51,244 nt of DNA from Alphaproteobacteria bacterium (GTDB lineage Bacteria; Pseudomonadota; Alphaproteobacteria; UBA7985): the NCBI GenBank assembly GCA_964228455.1, contig CAXQZM010000063.1, positions 1-51,244 of the forward strand, in the 5' to 3' direction. Position 1 is the stretch's first letter. Every line of letters begins with the position of its first letter. Shown in pieces: positions 2,879 through 35,724 of this stretch. The position numbers and the translations under genes are program-made. The notes beneath the pieces are model-generated. The model did not search any database. It was not told the origin of the DNA and saw only the letters and a list, made by a program, of their open reading frames with translations.

Positions 2879-4480
2879 CTAATCAAAAAAATCGTTTCCC
2901 TTGTCATCTGTTATTATGAAGGCTGGAAAGTCCTCAACGGTAATTCGCCAAACGGCCTCCATGCCTAACTCTTCAAAATCGAGAACCTCGACAGATTTAA
3001 TGGACTCAAGAGCAAGTTTGGCAGCTGCTCCCCCTTGAGTGCCCAAATAAAATCCTCCATACTTTGCGCAGGCATCCCGGACTTGTTTGCTACGGTTGCC
3101 TTTAGCAAGCATGACCATTGAGCCACCTAGTGCTTGGAATTGATCAACGAAACCATCCATTCGGCCTGCCGTTGTTGGTCCGAATGAACCTGAAGCGTAG
3201 TCTTTTGGTCGTTTAGCAGGTCCAGCATAATATATTGGGTGATTTTTGAAATAGTCTGGCATTTGGCCGCCCGCTTCAATCAATGCTCGGATTTTGCTAT
3301 GAGCAAGATCCCGTGCAACAATAATTGTTCCTGAGAGCATCACCCGCGTTTTTATTGGATAGCTAGACAAGAGCGCCCTAATTTCATCCATTGAACGATC
3401 AAGGTCCACTCTCACACCTTCACCTACAAGCTCTTTCTCGGAAACATCAGGTAGAAATTTAGCTGGATCTCGCTCTAATTCTTCTAAGAAAAGACCGCCA
3501 CTTGTAATTTTGGCTTTTGCTTGACGATCTGCGCCACAAGATACTCCAATGCCTATTGGTAAGCTTGCCCCATGTCTTGGCATACGAATAACTCTGACAT
3601 CGTGGCAAAAATACTTACCACCGAATTGAGCTCCAATACCCATTTCCCGGGTAAGATCGAGTATAGTCTGCTCCATGTCTAAATCCCGAAATGCATGAGC
3701 ATCATTAGAACCATAAGCGGGCAAAGTATCATAGTACCGCGCAGAAGCCAGCTTAACGGTCTTCATATTCTGCTCAGCACTCAAGCCACCAATAACAATT
3801 GCTAAATGATATGGGGGACATGCCGCGGTTCCAAGGGTGCGAATTTTCTCGTCCAAGAAAGGGATTAGGCGCTCTGGAGAGAGCATTGAGGGAGTGGCTT
3901 GAAACAAAAATGATTTGTTTGCTGACCCGCCACCTTTTGACATAAAGTGCAACTGATATTCAGCACCAAAGCCATCCACCATTAAGTCCACTTGAGCTGG
4001 CAAATTATTTCTAGTGTTAACTTCCTTGAACATTGTTATGGGGGCCAGCTGAGAATATCGTAAATTGTTTTTCTCGTACGCATCAAGAACACCTTGACCG
4101 AGTGCACTAGCGTCGTCACCATTAACCCATACTGCCTGGCCGCGCTTTCCCATAATTATAGCTGTGCCAGTATCTTGACACATGGGGAGAACACCTCCCG
4201 CCGAAATACTTGCATTTTTTAAATATGACAGGGCGACATAACGATCGTTATCGCTCGCTTCAGGATCGTCCAGAATATTTCTAAGTTGTTGGAGGTGCCC
4301 CGGTCGCAAAAAATGATTTATATCCGAAAATGCTGCCTCTGATAATAATCGGAGGCCCTCGGCTTCCAAAATTAGAATTTCATGCCCTCTAAAAGTATCA
4401 GTCCCAATATAGTCCTTAGAGATTAAGCGATAAAGCGTGTCATCATCGCCTAGGGGAAACAGCTTTGGTATCGATGTCAT
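2879..4480 (-). CDS. fumA: Class I (Fe-S) fumarate hydratase
   Basis: [47 protein letters not shown] motifs. Confidence 0.93.
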
Positions 4481-29489: not shown

Positions 29490-30212
29490 TCATTTTAACG
29501 TCGGCAACCTTATCGTTGCGCCTTCATTCAAAACTTTGCGCGCTTGTTGCGTTAAGGCCCCCTCCTCATCTCGAATTACGAAAGGTGGGGTAAGTTGAAA
29601 AGGACTGCGTGAGCCCTGTCGGGCAAAAACTAAAACCCGAGGTACAGTCGCTTTTCCGGAGGATCCAACTAGGGGCATCACAGTTATGCAACCAAAGTCG
29701 GGGGATAACGCAATTAATGCCTCTGTTAATTGAGCAGTGCTTAGCACAAAGCCTATCCGCCCGCGAGGAGAAACCCAAGCCTTAGCTCTATCAATCCAAG
29801 CACTTAACTTTTGATTACTATGACGCCCTGCTCGTCGCTGATCATTTGCTGGTAATCGCCCAGTACCAATTTGAAAGAATGGAGGATTTGATAGGACAAC
29901 GGGGGCAGGCTTCGGTTCTACTTTAAATATGTCTGATTCGATAATATCAAACCCGGCGGACACGTTGATTCTAGCTAGAGCAGCTAGCTCCGGGTCACTC
30001 TCCACACCAACCCCCATTGCTTGTTGAAACCGAGCCTGGAGACAAAGACCTACAGTTCCTACCCCGCAACCCAAATCCACAAATCGCTCTCCTGGTCTTA
30101 AGACTACTGCTGCTGCAAGCAATACTGGATCTTGGCCAGCCCGGTAGCCTTTTTTGGGCTGATGGATAAGAACGCGCCCACCTAAAAAAGCATCACAGGT
30201 TATGCTTTCCAT
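29490..30212 (-). CDS. tRNA1(Val) A37 N6-methyltransferase-like (TrmN6/YfiC family)
   Basis: FLGGRV..QPKKGYRAGQDPVLLAA, DLGCGVG SAM motif, NPPF; start overlaps the sua5 stop (TAATG). Confidence 0.85.
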   Translation of the reverse strand: MESITCDAFLGGRVLIHQPKKGYRAGQDPVLLAAAVVLRPGERFVDLGCGVGTVGLCLQARFQQAMGVGVESDPELAALARINVSAGFDIIESDIFKVEPKPAPVVLSNPPFFQIGTGRLPANDQRRAGRHSNQKLSAWIDRAKAWVSPRGRIGFVLSTAQLTEALIALSPDFGCITVMPLVGSSGKATVPRVLVFARQGSRSPFQLTPPFVIRDEEGALTQQARKVLNEGATIRLPTLK

Positions 30213-31162
30213 TATAGCGGAACAGCGCCTCGGGCGAGCCGATCATTTATGGCCCTACCGATGCCCTCATTCGGCACTGGCATGGCACAGATAGCATCAG
30301 CTCCAGAGCCACTGAGCACATGAAGCCCTTCAAAAAGTCGAGAAGCGGCCTCAACTAAATCACCTTGGTAAGAAAGGTTGTATACAAGGCTAGCATCTGG
30401 AACATCCGAGCCAAAAGCAAGGAGAGCCTGACCAGGAAAAACATGCAATTGATTTAGAAAAAGTGGAATCGGTGGCGCATAATGACGGCGTAACTGTCCC
30501 GGAGAGCTCACCTGTTCATCACTAAAATCTTCGAGGTATTTTTGATTTTCAGTAACCTGACCAATTACACGCTCAAGTTGAGCTTTGGTTACTGCTCCAT
30601 GTCGCAAGATTTGTGCATTTGGCCCAGAAATATCAATGACTGTGCTCTCCAGTCCAATGTTAGGCTCCTCCCCGGACAGGTATCCGATCCAAGAAACATC
30701 ACTGAAACTATCCATGACATGAGCAGCTCGGCTCGGGCTAAGAAGCCCAGACTTATTGGCACTTGGAGCTGCTACACCGCTAGGGAGCTTATCTGCCAAT
30801 TTTCTTACCTGCTCTCGGGCAGGACACCTAAGAGCAATGTTTTCCGATCCTGCAGTGACAATTGTACTTACCTTTGATTCACTTTTTTGAGGTAAAACGA
30901 TAGTTAGAGGCCCGGGCCAAAAAGCATTTGCGAGTGCACCTGCGCGGTGCCCCCAAATCCCGAGGGTGGACGCCTGATCTTGCCCACTAACATGAACAAT
31001 AAGAGGGTTAAAACTTGGACGTCCCTTAGCCTCGTATATTCGAGCTACAGCTTCATCACTAGCGGCATTAGCTCCCAAACCATATACAGTTTCTGTTGGG
31101 AAGATTACGAGCTGATCGTTGTGCAGTGCTTCAACTGCCTGTTCAAAATTTAGCGTTTGCAT
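30212..31162 (-). CDS. sua5: L-threonylcarbamoyladenylate synthase (Sua5 type)
   Basis: FPTETVYGLGANA, KGRPSFNPLIVH, FWPGPLT, APSANKSG, C-terminal SPGQLRRHYAP and AINDRL. Confidence 0.95.
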   Translation of the reverse strand: MQTLNFEQAVEALHNDQLVIFPTETVYGLGANAASDEAVARIYEAKGRPSFNPLIVHVSGQDQASTLGIWGHRAGALANAFWPGPLTIVLPQKSESKVSTIVTAGSENIALRCPAREQVRKLADKLPSGVAAPSANKSGLLSPSRAAHVMDSFSDVSWIGYLSGEEPNIGLESTVIDISGPNAQILRHGAVTKAQLERVIGQVTENQKYLEDFSDEQVSSPGQLRRHYAPPIPLFLNQLHVFPGQALLAFGSDVPDASLVYNLSYQGDLVEAASRLFEGLHVLSGSGADAICAMPVPNEGIGRAINDRLARGAVPL

Positions 31163-31247
31163 AGCTTTTTTCTAATATTGCTTGCTTCAGAGGTGTGTCA
31201 GGTGGCTTCAAACAATTATATACGTTGATTTGAAGCCCTTGCCAAAT

Positions 31248-32006
31248 TTAATAATCCTTGAGCCATTCTGATGCTCGACAGTAATTTCGAATAGATTTTG
31301 AATGTCCAGCAATTGCCTCCTCTATGCTAGGATTTCCATGAAAACATAGAACTCTGCAATCTTTAGGTAGCTGGGGCTTTAAGGCAAAGTTTAGAGGAAA
31401 ACTTGGCATAGCGTTACGTTTAAAGCTACAAACTAGAGAACCTGGCAAATACTTCAATGCACCATGCTTCAAAGCAGTCATTGATGTATAGTATTGTTCG
31501 GAACCTTTGTGACTATTTATTGCTGCTAATGGGTCGTTGGCAAAGTCATTATACAAAAAACTATGCTCACTTGGTTGGAAGCGGAATACCGAGCCATGCC
31601 CGCCTTCTCTACCCTGCCACTCGTATCTCCACTCTCTTCTCATAACTACACTGCCGGGCGCATGAGTAATAATTGGATCTAGGGGCCCTGTGATCAAAAC
31701 ATCAAGGTCAAAGCCGAGAACAACACCATCTATGTCCGCTAGACCGGGCCGGAACAGTGAGATTTTTTTCCAAGCACCTTTTCTTCCAGCCTTGTTCATT
31801 CCAAAGTCAATTGCTTCATCGAATGGTTCAGATGGAAGCTCACGCACCTCAACTTCTGATAAAATTCCATTGGCGTCATCGGTAAAACATATGAAGCGGA
31901 AATCTTGATTTACCCAACGCCGAACACCCTTGAACAGTCTATTAACATAGTGCGGTCCATACTTCGTTCCCCATTTCATACATACAACTGAGAGTGTCAT
32001 TAACAC
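31248..32006 (-). CDS. Putative GT-A fold glycosyltransferase
   Basis: CMKWGTKY..YVNRL, FICFTDD, WKKISLF, FDLDV (DxD), FHGNP; start may be ATG 32000. Confidence 0.7.
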   Translation of the reverse strand: MLMTLSVVCMKWGTKYGPHYVNRLFKGVRRWVNQDFRFICFTDDANGILSEVEVRELPSEPFDEAIDFGMNKAGRKGAWKKISLFRPGLADIDGVVLGFDLDVLITGPLDPIITHAPGSVVMRREWRYEWQGREGGHGSVFRFQPSEHSFLYNDFANDPLAAINSHKGSEQYYTSMTALKHGALKYLPGSLVCSFKRNAMPSFPLNFALKPQLPKDCRVLCFHGNPSIEEAIAGHSKSIRNYCRASEWLKDY

Positions 32007-32156
32007 GCCTCCATGATTCAGTCAGACTTCGTCATGTCTATAACTAAAACACCCTGCGAACTGCAATTACCCTCCAGTAAAAGAATTTGCTCTAATGGAC
32101 GACTTAAGGAATTCTATGGGGCAGTAATTGGAAGTTACTCTACGGTGAACGATTTG

Positions 32157-32560
32157 TGGGGTTGTGTGGGTTTTTCTTAGTACGGAATTCCCTCATCAAC
32201 TCTCCTCATTTTTATTTGATTCTCATCAAGGTTTAACTTTTTCACTACAGGGTGTTTTTCATCAACAACCCTCCAGTAAGGAAAATTTTCATCATCTTTA
32301 TGCTGTTCAATTGCCATTCTTAGAAATATCCCAGTTGTTACTGGACAAGTATTATCTGCCCCCGCTTTTAATGCTAGTCCACGCCTAAGTTCTTTAATAC
32401 TTAAATAAGAACCCTTGGGTATCGTAAAAATAAACTCTGAAATTTTCTCTGGCGAAGAAATAAGCATTTTCTCGCCAGCAGAAATATCGGAAAACCCTTT
32501 ATCTAGAATTTTTACAATATTTCTACTCAATGATTATCTCCTAAAATCCACACAACCCCA
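32157..32560. mobile_element. Putative miniature inverted-repeat gene cassette at the glmS 3' end
   Basis: TGGGGTTGTGTGGGTTTT (32157-32174) and AAAATCCACACAACCCCA (32543-32560) are inverted copies (17/18). They enclose only an RBS and one low-GC gene; the right copy abuts the glmS stop. Confidence 0.6.
32177..32530 (-). CDS. Small MGMT/alkyltransferase-like DNA-binding domain protein
   Basis: AGGAG RBS 7 nt before TTG; IPKG..SIKELRRGLA..TCPVTTGIFL (HTH-like) and PYWRVV in place of the PCHRV active site. Confidence 0.65.
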   Translation of the reverse strand: MSRNIVKILDKGFSDISAGEKMLISSPEKISEFIFTIPKGSYLSIKELRRGLALKAGADNTCPVTTGIFLRMAIEQHKDDENFPYWRVVDEKHPVVKKLNLDENQIKMRRVDEGIPY

Positions 32561-34387
32561 TCATTCAACGGTAACTGATTTAGCCAAATTCCTTGGCTGA
32601 TCAACATCCGTGCCTTTGAATACAGCTGTATGATAAGCGAGCATTTGTACCGGCAATGCGTAGATAAGTGGGGCTACAAACTCCTGCACTGGGCCAGTAT
32701 CAAACTTCCCCGTCGCTAAACTACCTCCGCGTTCAAAACCCTCTGCATCTGATAATAAGTATACTTTCCCACCTCTTGCATGCACCTCTTGAATATTACC
32801 AAGCGTCTTCTCGAATAACGGCCCCTCTGGCGCGCACACTATTACGGGAACAGCTTCATCAATAAGCGCAATAGGACCATGCTTCATTTCTCCGGCAGCA
32901 TAGCCCTCCGCATGGATGTATGAAATCTCTTTTAACTTTAGGGCACCTTCCATTGCTACAGGATACAAATTTCCCCTGCCCAGAAACAGAATATCCTGTG
33001 CTGACGATATTTGGCGCGCAAAGTTTTCAATATCGCTTTCCTTGTGCAGTAGTTCCTGCATTTTCCCGGGAACCTCTTGTAAAGCCCTTACAAGTTCTTC
33101 CGCTTCTGATGCCTCGATTGCGTCACGAGCGAGCGCGGCGTGAATCGCGACGCAAGCCAGAACTGCAAGCTGAGTAGTGAAAGCCTTGGTGGAAGCCACG
33201 CCAATTTCAGGCCCAGCGTGAGTTTGCAACAAACCATCAGCCTCTCGAGCTATGGTGCTCTCTGCGACGTTAGCAATAGCAAGCACTTTAACTCCTTTAC
33301 CGCGCATGTACCGCATAGCCGCCAGAGTATCTGCCGTCTCACCTGATTGAGTAAGCACAATGCCTCCATCAGTATCACTCATTGGTGCGTCTCGATATCG
33401 AAGCTCACTCGCAACATCAATTTCTACAGGCAATCGTGCGATTTTCTCGAACCAATACTTTGCAACTAAACCAGCATAATAAGCTGTTCCGCACGCGGTG
33501 ATCACCAGACGATTTATTCCACGAAAATCGATAGACAGGTTGGGAAGGTGAACGCTGTGTAACTTTGGATTTAAGTGAGCATGTAATGTATCACCTACCA
33601 CCGATGGCTGCTCATGAATCTCTTTTTCCATAAAGTGGCGATAATTTCCCTTGCCAACAATTGCACCAGAGTACTTCGAGAGTTTGATCTCTCTAGTGGC
33701 GGGTTGTCCCGTCGAATCAAAAATTTTAGCGTTATCCTGTGTTAGGATCGCCCAATCACCTTCTTCTAGGTAGGATATTCTATTTGTGAGATGAGCTAGA
33801 GCGAGCGAGTCTGAGCCGATGTACATCCCACTTTCACCATAACCTATAGCAAGTGGAGACCCCTTTCGCGCACAAGCGATCAAATCACCTCGATCATGAA
33901 ATATTATAGCTAAAGCAAAAGCCCCCTGAAGTTCCTTGAGTGCAGTAAAAACTGCAAATTTGGGATCTCCACTTGTCTGATAGTAATTTGAAATCAAATG
34001 CACAATTACTTCGGTATCGGTGTCAGACTCAAATATAACGCCCTCGCCCTGAAGCTTTTTTCGCAGATAATCAAAATTCTCAATGATGCCATTATGGACA
34101 ACCGCAACACAACCATCCGAATGTGGGTGCGCATTAGGAACATTGGGCACTCCATGTGTTGCCCATCGCGTGTGGCCAATACCAGTGGTACCCTCCACCG
34201 GTTCATGGAGGATTACCTCCTCTAGTGCACTTAACTTGCCAGAAGCTCGCCGACGAGCGATCGTCCTATCCTCGAGAACGGTAGCGATTCCTGCACTATC
34301 ATAACCTCTATATTCTAACTGTTTAAGCCCTTGCAAAATAGGTGATGCAACTGACTGATTTCCTACTATCCCTATTATACCGCACAT
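32561..34387 (-). CDS. glmS: Glutamine-fructose-6-phosphate transaminase
   Basis: MCGIIG, LEYRGYDSAG, GHTRWATHG, C-terminal QPRNLAKSVTVE. Confidence 0.99.
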   Translation of the reverse strand: MCGIIGIVGNQSVASPILQGLKQLEYRGYDSAGIATVLEDRTIARRRASGKLSALEEVILHEPVEGTTGIGHTRWATHGVPNVPNAHPHSDGCVAVVHNGIIENFDYLRKKLQGEGVIFESDTDTEVIVHLISNYYQTSGDPKFAVFTALKELQGAFALAIIFHDRGDLIACARKGSPLAIGYGESGMYIGSDSLALAHLTNRISYLEEGDWAILTQDNAKIFDSTGQPATREIKLSKYSGAIVGKGNYRHFMEKEIHEQPSVVGDTLHAHLNPKLHSVHLPNLSIDFRGINRLVITACGTAYYAGLVAKYWFEKIARLPVEIDVASELRYRDAPMSDTDGGIVLTQSGETADTLAAMRYMRGKGVKVLAIANVAESTIAREADGLLQTHAGPEIGVASTKAFTTQLAVLACVAIHAALARDAIEASEAEELVRALQEVPGKMQELLHKESDIENFARQISSAQDILFLGRGNLYPVAMEGALKLKEISYIHAEGYAAGEMKHGPIALIDEAVPVIVCAPEGPLFEKTLGNIQEVHARGGKVYLLSDAEGFERGGSLATGKFDTGPVQEFVAPLIYALPVQMLAYHTAVFKGTDVDQPRNLAKSVTVE

Positions 34388-35724
34388 TATTTCTTTGTTT
34401 CTTTTTTATGTTTGACTAATCTTTGACGGAGCGCAACAGCCCCCCCTTGCACACTCTTTATCGGGCCTCGGGTAACTGTAAGTGAATTAGGTGGAACGTC
34501 CTTTGTTAGAGTTGATCCAGCGCCTACAATTGCACCCTCACCTATCGAAATAGGAGCAACTAGCGCAGTATTGGAGCCAATAAATGCCCGATCGCCTATT
34601 TCCGTTTGATGCTTGGAAAAACCATCATAATTGCATGTAATTGTACCAGCACCAATATTTGCAAATGAACCAATTTTGGCATCTCCAACATATGATAAAT
34701 GGTTAACTTTCGACCCCTCACCAAAATCTGCATTTTTTGTCTCAACGAAATTACCCACTCTTACCTTCGGTCCAACTTTGGTCCCAGGACGTAGACGCGC
34801 AAAAGGTCCAATACTTGCCCCATCGCTGATTTCAGTTTCTTCAAGATGACAGAAGCCTCTTATGATAGCCCTCGTTCCGATAGTAACCCCAGGGCCGATC
34901 ACTTGATTTGGTTCCAAAACGGTATCTACACCAATCTTTGTATCATAAGACAGTTTAACACTTCCTGGATCAATCATAGTTACACCAGCGTCCATGTGAG
35001 TGCTTCGCAAGCGCTTCTGCATCACGGCTTCTGCCTCAGAAAGCTCTTCACGCGTATTAACGCCTTTCAAATCAGTCTCATCAGCTTCCACTGCAATACA
35101 CAAACTTCCCTGCTGGCTCATTAAACCTACAATATCAGTTAAATACAGTTCAGCAGCTGCATTCTGAGTTGTTAATTGATCAAGAAGATGAAGACATTGT
35201 GGCGCGCGCAACGCCATTATCCCGCCATTACAAAAATTAATTGTGCGCTCTTTTTCAGTAGCGTCTTTAAACTCCACAATCCTTTCCAACTTGCCGCCTT
35301 GCACAACCAAACGACCGTAGGTGCTGGGGTCTCCAGACCTGAAACCTGAAACAACTAAATCGGCAGTTTCAGCCTCAGCTCTGGTCAGCATTTGTTTTAG
35401 AAAAGACGCGCGTACTAGGGGGGAATCTCCGTACAGAACTAGAATCCAACCATCGAAGCTGTCTAAATGAGAGCACGCGACTTGAACAGCATGCCCGGTT
35501 CCTCGGCGGTGCTTCTGTATAACTACTTCACCTGCAACTTCGAATGCTTCAGCCTCTGGGCCCAACACGGTGAGGCAGCGCTGAGGATTCAATTCATCTG
35601 CAGTGGCTTGGACATGACCAAGCATTGTTCTTCCAGCTATTTCATGCAAAACCTTTGGCATAGCAGATTGCATCCGCGTGCCTTTGCCGGCCCCCAGAAT
35701 AATTACGGCTAAGTTAGCAACCAT
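34387..35724 (-). CDS. glmU: Bifunctional UDP-GlcNAc pyrophosphorylase / GlcN-1-P acetyltransferase
   Basis: GAGKGTRMQSAMPKVLH, GTGHAV, YLTD, hexapeptide repeats, HLSYVGDA, NYDG; stop overlaps the glmS start. Confidence 0.98.
   Translation of the reverse strand: MVANLAVIILGAGKGTRMQSAMPKVLHEIAGRTMLGHVQATADELNPQRCLTVLGPEAEAFEVAGEVVIQKHRRGTGHAVQVACSHLDSFDGWILVLYGDSPLVRASFLKQMLTRAEAETADLVVSGFRSGDPSTYGRLVVQGGKLERIVEFKDATEKERTINFCNGGIMALRAPQCLHLLDQLTTQNAAAELYLTDIVGLMSQQGSLCIAVEADETDLKGVNTREELSEAEAVMQKRLRSTHMDAGVTMIDPGSVKLSYDTKIGVDTVLEPNQVIGPGVTIGTRAIIRGFCHLEETEISDGASIGPFARLRPGTKVGPKVRVGNFVETKNADFGEGSKVNHLSYVGDAKIGSFANIGAGTITCNYDGFSKHQTEIGDRAFIGSNTALVAPISIGEGAIVGAGSTLTKDVPPNSLTVTRGPIKSVQGGAVALRQRLVKHKKETKK

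Follow-up and report, generated by a model that had tools for sequence, protein, structure and literature searches.

How did a single gene with no promoter of its own come to lie directly behind glmS, between two copies of an inverted repeat, in an alphaproteobacterial genome? The locus is in the 51,244-nt contig CAXQZM010000063.1 of assembly GCA_964228455.1 (Alphaproteobacteria bacterium, UBA7985). The contig was analysed at its full length and is called the window here; its coordinates are those of the forward strand. On the minus strand, the glmS stop codon TGA is followed at once by the first copy of the repeat (an arm), then by an AGGAG ribosome-binding site, an open reading frame (ORF) for a protein of 117 amino acids (aa), its TAA stop codon and, 2 nt later, the second arm. 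We interpret this segment as a 426-bp integrative cassette that carries one gene and no recombinase and that was inserted site-specifically in the last codons of glmS. We give this reading a probability of roughly 0.8.

The sequence-only reading of this locus had described 18-bp inverted repeats that match at 17 of 18 positions and enclose only a ribosome-binding site and an ORF. A repeat search confirmed this structure. The proximal arm (32543-32560, minus strand) and the distal arm (32157-32174, minus strand) are 18 nt long, 17/18 (94%) complementary and 368 nt apart. The 13-nt core of the arm occurs at only these two places in the window; in the whole genome (1.78 Mb, 105 contigs, 92% complete), it occurs at this locus and in two unpaired, one-mismatch matches on other contigs. 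The ribosome-binding site (32538-32542, minus strand) stands 7 nt before the TTG start of the cargo gene (32177-32530, minus strand; TAA stop), and the interval between the glmS stop and the cargo gene leaves no space for a promoter. The low GC content that had been noticed by hand count was also borne out, with 0.36 at 32200-32599 versus 0.47-0.54 within glmS. The glmS gene itself (32561-34387, minus strand; 608 aa; SIS and GATase domains) was, as stated earlier, intact at its 3′ end: it is full-length and ends in the conserved KSVTVE-TGA.

The flanks had been described as not duplicated, but they carry an imperfect direct repeat of the glmS end, in which 32581-32561 and 32155-32135 are identical at 15 of 21 positions (counted by hand). 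The left copy (32561-32581, minus strand) consists of the last 21 nt of glmS, which would be the docking site, and is attL-like. The right, attR-like junction (32135-32156, minus strand) has 22 nt, among them a 21-nt mimic of the glmS end encoding KSFTVE-TAA. The distal arm is followed directly by CAAATCGTTCACCGTAGAGTAA; this mimic, KSFTVE-stop as opposed to KSVTVE-stop, makes up its final 21 nt. The dinucleotide AC, the putative crossover point, is found at 32572-32571 in the left junction and at 32146-32145 in the right junction, 10 nt from the adjacent arm in both cases. The mobile unit would thus begin immediately behind the left AC and end with the right AC (32145-32570, minus strand), so that its start falls inside the last codons of glmS. 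On this division, the 10 nt at 32570-32561 (the last Val and Glu codons and TGA) would have come in with the cassette, and the 10 nt at 32144-32135 would be the displaced original end of glmS, with its old GAGTAA at 32140-32135.

The mimic of the glmS end is in frame with the 117-aa ORF, with TAA alone between them (EKPTQPHKSFTVE-stop; 32135-32179, minus strand). This shared frame was seen in all close copies of the cassette; it may be due to chance (1 in 3) or may be a trace of a recombinase frame.

Copies of the cassette in other DNA allowed its borders to be defined. We compared 35 loci with the cassette gene from species-representative genomes and 43 from metagenomes (loci, genomes and a protein are cited below by our labels L, G and P). 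The 35 genome loci came mostly from single-cell genomes labelled SAR116 or uncultured Alphaproteobacteria in their records, often with 2-3 copies per genome. In more than 30 loci, homology began about 18 nt before the proximal arm and ended 12-23 nt after the distal arm, with unrelated flanks. The 10 nt after AC (nGTnGAATGA) traveled with the left end of the cassette; for example, one subtype with 94% identity had GGTT-GAATGA in 4 of 4 different upstream contexts. At the right end, CAAATCGTTCAC traveled with the cassette and the sequence after it varied with the neighbour. As these end sequences stay with the cassette, the AC in the Thr codon, or a position beside it, is the probable place of the exchange.

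The cassette was 93.4-99.3% identical to that of the window in backgrounds where the last 600 nt of glmS were only 69.8-75.8% identical. It lay directly behind glmS in 11 of the loci fetched for the cassette gene (12 rows, in which L059 is a refetch of L032) and behind other cassettes or other DNA in the remaining loci. In the array of L059, it was present twice, 5 kb apart. The taxonomic order of the window comprises 22 genomes and that of the single-cell genomes 192; the cassette hosts therefore belong to different orders. Closer to the window, the 117-aa gene was not found in 14 genomes of the same family. In one genome of the same genus (G001), glmS is followed by 9 nt and then by a Sua5/TsaC-like gene, which lies 1.4 kb further from glmS in the window. 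In another (G002), a racemase-like gene lies between the two. The three genomes thus differ behind glmS, which means that the site is variable and that an empty form exists, and the comparison of glmS 3′ ends that had been suggested earlier provided both an empty site and alternative content.

Terminal inverted repeats at the classic Tn7 hot spot might suggest a segment that is inverted as an on/off switch, or an element moved by a transposase, be it a miniature inverted-repeat transposable element, a mobile insertion cassette or the relic of a Tn7-like transposon. Tn7 inserts about 25 bp downstream of glmS, has TGT..ACA ends and generates a 5-bp duplication. The cassette, however, lies inside the last glmS codons, has different ends and lacks the 5-bp duplication (tns genes were not searched for), and the repeats at the ends of Tn3-family elements, at about 38 bp, are longer than the 18-bp arms. 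The dismissal of both kinds of ends in the sequence-only reading was sound. A miniature transposable element or mobile insertion cassette is also at odds with the single copy in the genome and with a 21-nt copy of the target end in place of a short target duplication (no ISfinder comparison was made), and the arms differ between cassettes. As to inversion, the gene and the junction motifs were in one orientation in the 43 copies compared and in all arrays, and no inverted copy was found among them, so that the invertible switch once proposed for this locus is not borne out. We consider transposition and inversion together to be highly improbable.

In L024-L030 and L068, the cassette (about 3971-4396 of each) was found at a core-like site other than glmS, ...ACAGTCAC |, downstream of a transporter-type gene cluster. 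From their sequences, these copies look like a secondary-site insertion inherited in one lineage. The proximal arm in these copies has two uncompensated changes, and no TVE-stop follows; in L024-L030, pairing was lost at two positions and the gene was retained. Diverged 117-aa genes were seen elsewhere in the chromosome in L037, L039-L044, L047 (83-87% identity) and L051-L054. They lack intact arms and have a degenerate tail, and 2-3 paralogues were present per single-cell genome.

Insertion behind glmS appears to be serial. SAR116-type genomes and marine metagenomes have units lined up in arrays behind glmS, every one of them closed by a copy of the glmS end, and where a cassette copy does not adjoin glmS, the sequence upstream of it again ends in ...TVE-stop. 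The 12-nt junction motif ACnGTnGArTrr was found behind glmS in six long stretches, 2, 3, 5, 7, 4 and 5 times, and on the glmS strand only. The arrays had up to 7 junctions in 6.6 kb; metagenome contigs had up to 6 motifs in 3 kb, with the shortest units at about 240 nt. Only the copies of the motif in glmS end long ORFs, and the other copies close frames of 7-37 codons. Over all loci, we obtained 81 distinct junction segments, 19 at glmS and 62 elsewhere. In the 62 non-glmS segments, the 9 nt upstream of the motif, which were outside the search pattern, conform to the glmS pattern (AAATC..T.) as well. In a control search, the motif matched 17 times, counting both strands, in the whole genome of the window, with a single cluster, the locus studied here.

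The cargo of the arrays is varied, mostly co-oriented with glmS and promoterless. It includes DsrE-like, MarC, NnrU, GNAT and glyoxalase proteins and many small secreted or unknown proteins. A search beyond this genome had been suggested earlier, and it showed that the cassette is common elsewhere and that other cargo and other arms occur in the same architecture. The first of the options then offered, a non-autonomous system placing promoterless cargo behind core genes, therefore stands in its main part: the same unit is found in many backgrounds and at many positions within arrays. It does not stand in its breadth or its novelty, as the system is tied to glmS and not to core genes in general, and its kind of mechanism is already known.

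Defence-type cargo was also present in some arrays (L103, 757-2295; L031, 1862-3235; L060), namely an MvaI/BcnI-type restriction enzyme together with its methylase as a complete pair, a Schlafen-type AlbA_2 protein and a PD-(D/E)XK (Cas4-like) nuclease.

The arms were examined for symmetry in 54 distinct cassettes, with an inverted-repeat score of at least 9 and 22 x 22 offsets allowed. Terminal inverted repeats were found in 28 of them, about 11-13 of which are variants of the cassette in the window, and their sequences differ widely. In 27 of these 28, AC lies at exactly the same distance from both arms. Pairs of ends from the same cassette scored 10.6 versus 6.4 +/- 2.6 for mismatched ends (20 versus 380 pairs), and partner-site identity around the crossover is limited to AC. 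Because the arms are equidistant from AC, where the comparison of junctions also places the crossover, we conclude from these alignments that integration has divided a dyad-symmetric attachment site and left one half of it as each arm, the P′-type half proximally and the P-type half distally.

The arms could instead act at the RNA level, as an 18-bp long-range stem in a read-through transcript of glmUS, where it would loop out the cistron and lead to stabilisation or RNase III-type processing. The arms would indeed pair in such a transcript, metatranscriptome contigs of two runs cover the cassette, and in the L046 lineage, two arm positions have changed on both arms in concert. Such a stem, however, gives no reason for the exact equidistance from AC, and a split attachment site already explains the arms. 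The secondary-site copies in L024-L030 kept the gene after their loss of pairing. No Rfam family was found in 31000-34600, and the RNA contigs are only a hint, as they show neither transcript ends nor processing and the libraries may contain DNA. We regard a purely RNA-level role of the arms as very unlikely.

With an attachment site split by integration, the arrangement in the window could be explained as follows. The circular cassette would carry a dyad-symmetric site of about 58 bp (arm, 10 nt, AC, 10 nt, arm), with a mimic of the glmS end in its central 21 nt. A crossover at the AC of the Thr codon would split this site. After integration, the first arm would stand at the start of the cassette, which would supply the last Val, Glu and stop codons of glmS, and the second arm would stand at the end of the cassette, followed by the displaced original end of glmS. 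The gene would therefore appear bracketed by inverted repeats without room for a promoter, and it would be read from the glmUS transcript. Serial insertions of this kind would build the integron-like arrays behind glmS in SAR116-type bacteria. The enzyme would most likely be a large serine recombinase, provided in trans by autonomous members of the family.

Genes for such enzymes were found in relatives. A Resolvase-domain search of the 192 genomes of the single-cell order gave 15 matches with open frames of 463-602 aa. Five loci were picked by a Resolvase-domain match with an open frame of 558-602 aa, four of them with a match to the tail-like family described below on the same contig and the fifth (L157) beside a small serine recombinase. 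In 5/5 of these loci, a gene for 550-601 aa points towards a junction and stops no more than 54 nt from its AC: 16-54 nt before AC in L153, L154 and L157, 4-6 nt after AC in L155, and 52 nt beyond AC in L156. All five recombinases have PF00239 and PF07508, and two also have the zinc ribbon PF13408. In L157 (5262-7555, minus strand), a 199-aa small serine recombinase lies directly upstream of the large one.

Small ORFs that read away from the junctions match the first half of the Recombinase domain (PF07508). They form a tail-like family of about 120-135 aa with 872 relatives, some of which are labelled 'recombinase family protein' by one source. Tail-like proteins were present in 56 of the 192 genomes of the order, in no open frame of more than 180 aa and often in several copies per array. 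A search with the tail protein for longer fusions found no full-length recombinase, only proteins of 215 and 222 aa; the Resolvase-domain search was the sole source of full-length recombinases. Examples are in L062 (9519-9887, minus strand), L058 (8509-8907, plus strand) and L155 (14054-14398, plus strand); they always abut a junction and read away from it.

The first element of L155, a glmS array, is 9.6 kb long; a tail-like ORF occupies its left end, the recombinase lies at the right, and the arms are 10 nt from AC on both sides. When its ends were joined at AC by coordinates, the recombinase frame was in phase with the tail, which added more than 110 codons free of stops. This in-phase join was seen in the L155 element alone; in 3 of the 5 loci, the recombinase stops before AC. 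In the window, the proximal arm and the ribosome-binding site resemble the opening codons of the tail frame in the second element of L155 (junction 14050), which makes the arm look like a remnant of an element of this kind.

Small resolvases of 183 aa with an HTH_7 domain were seen inside two arrays (L155, 10744-11295, plus strand; L061, 8237-8788, plus strand). Small resolvases elsewhere in two single-cell genomes were unrelated to the arrays and were set aside.

The features expected of a serine-recombinase cassette can thus be followed in the window and its relatives: insertion at the 3′ end of a conserved single-copy gene without damage to it, repeats of the core in direct orientation at both ends, and dyad-symmetric halves about AC. 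A serine recombinase is absent from the window and its genome and present at the junctions of all five related loci, none with matching arms. Several results weigh against our reading. The earlier statement that the window has no transposase or recombinase was upheld for recombinases, as no Phage_integrase (PF00589), Resolvase (PF00239) or Recombinase (PF07508) domain was found on the contig, and stays as it was for DDE transposases, which were not searched for. Neither PF00239 nor PF07508 had a match in the genome of the window, at 92% completeness. No large serine recombinase with attachment arms matching the cassette of the window was found, so that the gene flanked by the same repeat, which the sequence-only reading had suggested looking for, did not turn up. 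In the five array-bearing single-cell genomes examined first, no catalytic serine-recombinase domain was present in the array except one small resolvase. A contiguous arm-core-arm junction, as in a circle or a tandem, was found in none of the metagenome contigs, although this was a weak search with an exact-match pattern, and in viral contigs, neither the distal arm plus tail nor any protein related to the cargo was found. For the equidistance in 27 of 28 cassettes, the chance of about 1 in 22 is our own estimate, made with no shuffle control, and, taken by itself, the symmetry would be compatible with a tyrosine recombinase, too, if its 6-8-bp overlap were centred on AC. Finally, to judge from the composite database protein described below, some elements at the glmS site may use a second, tyrosine-type enzyme at their left end.

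With no serine recombinase found in the window's genome, this copy of the cassette would be non-autonomous and thus stranded cargo.

A tyrosine-recombinase or integron-like system was the most serious alternative. Its junctions would act like attC hairpins, or as core sites whose 6-8-bp overlap has AC at its centre. Integrons, which depend on a special tyrosine recombinase, are the standard example of a device that stacks single-gene cassettes without promoters, and the outcome behind glmS is similar: the cassettes are mostly co-oriented and promoterless, and the sites are structured, with arm sequences that vary between cassettes while the symmetry is kept, as in attC. In addition, a 206-aa database protein, P0374, runs from a tyrosine-recombinase C-terminus through a degenerate junction into a tail-like ORF. 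The arrays, however, lack IntI and an attI beside an integrase, and no PF00589 match was found on the five array contigs of the single-cell genomes. In a further 12 integrase regions from those genomes, nothing resembled P0374 and the junction motif formed no cluster. The integrase part of P0374 was not found in 22 + 8 + 5 genomes, except for one 49%-identical gene on a 1.9-kb contig of G016. The sites are also not attC-like in their R″/L″-L′/R′ boxes (by eye): the best matches to R″ and R′ have one mismatch each and lie inside the arms and not at the edge. The cassettes border on one another at the centre of the palindrome, where the crossover would lie, and not at its 3′ edge. An identity between partners of only AC better fits the 2-bp crossover of serine recombinases. 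We therefore consider a tyrosine-type system unlikely as the general explanation, though less so than transposition or an RNA stem. In the window's own genome, PF00589 had two matches, both on other contigs.

The contig of G016 (L116; 1.9 kb, from the order of the window) carries a phage-like integrase with an excisionase-like helix-turn-helix protein and a DnaA-C-like module, with no evident link to glmS. No junction motif was found on it by pattern search, and none by eye in its last 260 nt.

Insertion by a serine recombinase at the end of a housekeeping gene has precedents. The Enterococcus and staphylococcal cassette chromosomes (ECC and SCC) are reported to dock in the 3′ region of rlmH by means of CcrAB, with dyad-symmetric att sites and inverted repeats in the circular form (PMC6222049). 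Like the glmS cassettes, they use the 3′ region of a conserved single-copy housekeeping gene that is left intact, with direct repeats of the site at both ends, a dyad-symmetric circular site and variable cargo. Their pair of large serine recombinases, CcrA and CcrB, recalls in its arrangement the small and large recombinase genes of L157. Staphylococcal composite islands also include units without ccr genes. The glmS cassettes differ in that their target is not rlmH (orfX), so that they are not SCCmec or ECC proper. They also differ in their size and stacking, as units go down to about 240-430 bp with one gene and form integron-like arrays, and in an att core that is a 21-nt mimic of a gene end with variation of a synonymous type.

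The islands at ssrA in Dehalococcoides are a second precedent, as described by McMurdie et al. 2011 (PMC3146451): they are tandem, lie downstream of an essential single-copy gene and are bounded by a 20-bp repeat of its 3′ end, their integrase DsiB is CcrB-like, and about half of them have no integration module and were proposed to be mobilisable in cis. In that account, the integrase gene overlaps att at its 3′ end, as do the recombinase genes of L155 and L156. The order of the small and large recombinases in L157 is like that of DsiA and DsiB. Unlike the glmS cassettes, the ssrA islands, in the same account, have an RNA gene as target, kilobase size and a six-gene integration module, with the integrase at attL on the reverse strand, whereas the recombinase of the glmS arrays lies at the right end on the glmS strand (PMC3146451). 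Additive flexible genomic islands and tycheposon islands, located at tRNA genes (bioRxiv 10.1101/2020.12.28.424599; PMC10872708), share with the glmS arrays serial integration at one site, streamlined marine hosts, scattered partial copies of the target end, and niche and defence cargo. They differ in their tyrosine recombinases and in their kilobase units with integration and replication modules.

By analogy with SCC/ECC and the ssrA islands, the mechanism would thus be of a known kind, based on halves of serine-recombinase attachment sites. The differences lie in the glmS target, in one-gene units of miniature size, in arrays that recall integrons and in the detachable tail; no description of a glmS cassette system was found in the literature searched, and the main text of the SAR116 phylogenomics paper mentions neither glmS nor cassettes. 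A broader proposal, which we put forward tentatively and at slightly worse than even odds, is a gene-capture platform of SAR116-type bacteria based on serine recombinases. In it, glmS would be the universal dock, one-gene cassettes with a split attP would be mobilised in trans and exchanged across orders, and some autonomous members would lose their DNA-binding tail on integration, a possible switch between integration and excision. If this is true, an integron-like outcome would be reached through serine-recombinase sites at an essential, near-universal gene in abundant surface-ocean bacteria. It would account for a hot spot where strains differ in gene content, in genomes without plasmids and most classical mobile elements. 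A 426-bp unit that is nearly identical across hosts with glmS genes differing by a quarter of their bases would represent a route by which genes pass between distant lineages. As the sites are short (about 58 bp around a central AC) and the cassettes small, the proposal is directly testable, and these sites and cassettes might serve as a docking tool at a universally conserved site.

The cargo of the window's cassette has more than 500 relatives in metagenomes and no Pfam or NCBIfam family. A structure model of the 117-aa protein, made with 68 homologues, had a predicted local distance difference test score (pLDDT) of 96. The top 12 Foldseek rows were O6-alkylguanine-DNA alkyltransferases and S. 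pombe Atl1, with probabilities of up to 0.98, although the same rows were weak in E value (0.06-0.4) and template modelling (TM) score (0.43-0.52). PF01035 was matched by 1 of the 68 homologues (E 0.0012). The residues P84, W86 and R87 are nearly invariant and lie within a PYWRV motif. This motif probably corresponds to PCHRV, the active-site motif, with the cysteine replaced, as is the case in alkyltransferase-like proteins. An alkyltransferase-like (ATL/MGMT) DNA-binding fold is tentatively suggested by the model. A likeness to SurA was dropped, as a profile search of sequences of solved structures gave only chance-level rows.

Four sequencing runs were compared, all as assembled contigs, and they yielded no joints. 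The metatranscriptome contigs from two of them cover only the cassette, and one continues into another glmS allele. In one DNA run, contigs break at 32016-32018 and at about 32531-32583; these breaks may reflect the cassette as a repeat in that metagenome and prove nothing.

Beyond the right junction, a 252-aa ORF (31248-32006, minus strand) without a Pfam or NCBIfam family lies between the cassette and the Sua5/TsaC-like gene (30212-31162, minus strand), the conserved right neighbour of glmS in relatives. The ORF is absent from this place in both genomes of the same genus, which does not show it to be a cassette. A hairpin at 31204-31237, considered as a further junction (31237-31204), was dropped for its misfit to the junction motif. 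It has a 9-bp stem and a 16-nt loop and lies after the 252-aa ORF, just before tsaC, where it may be a terminator.

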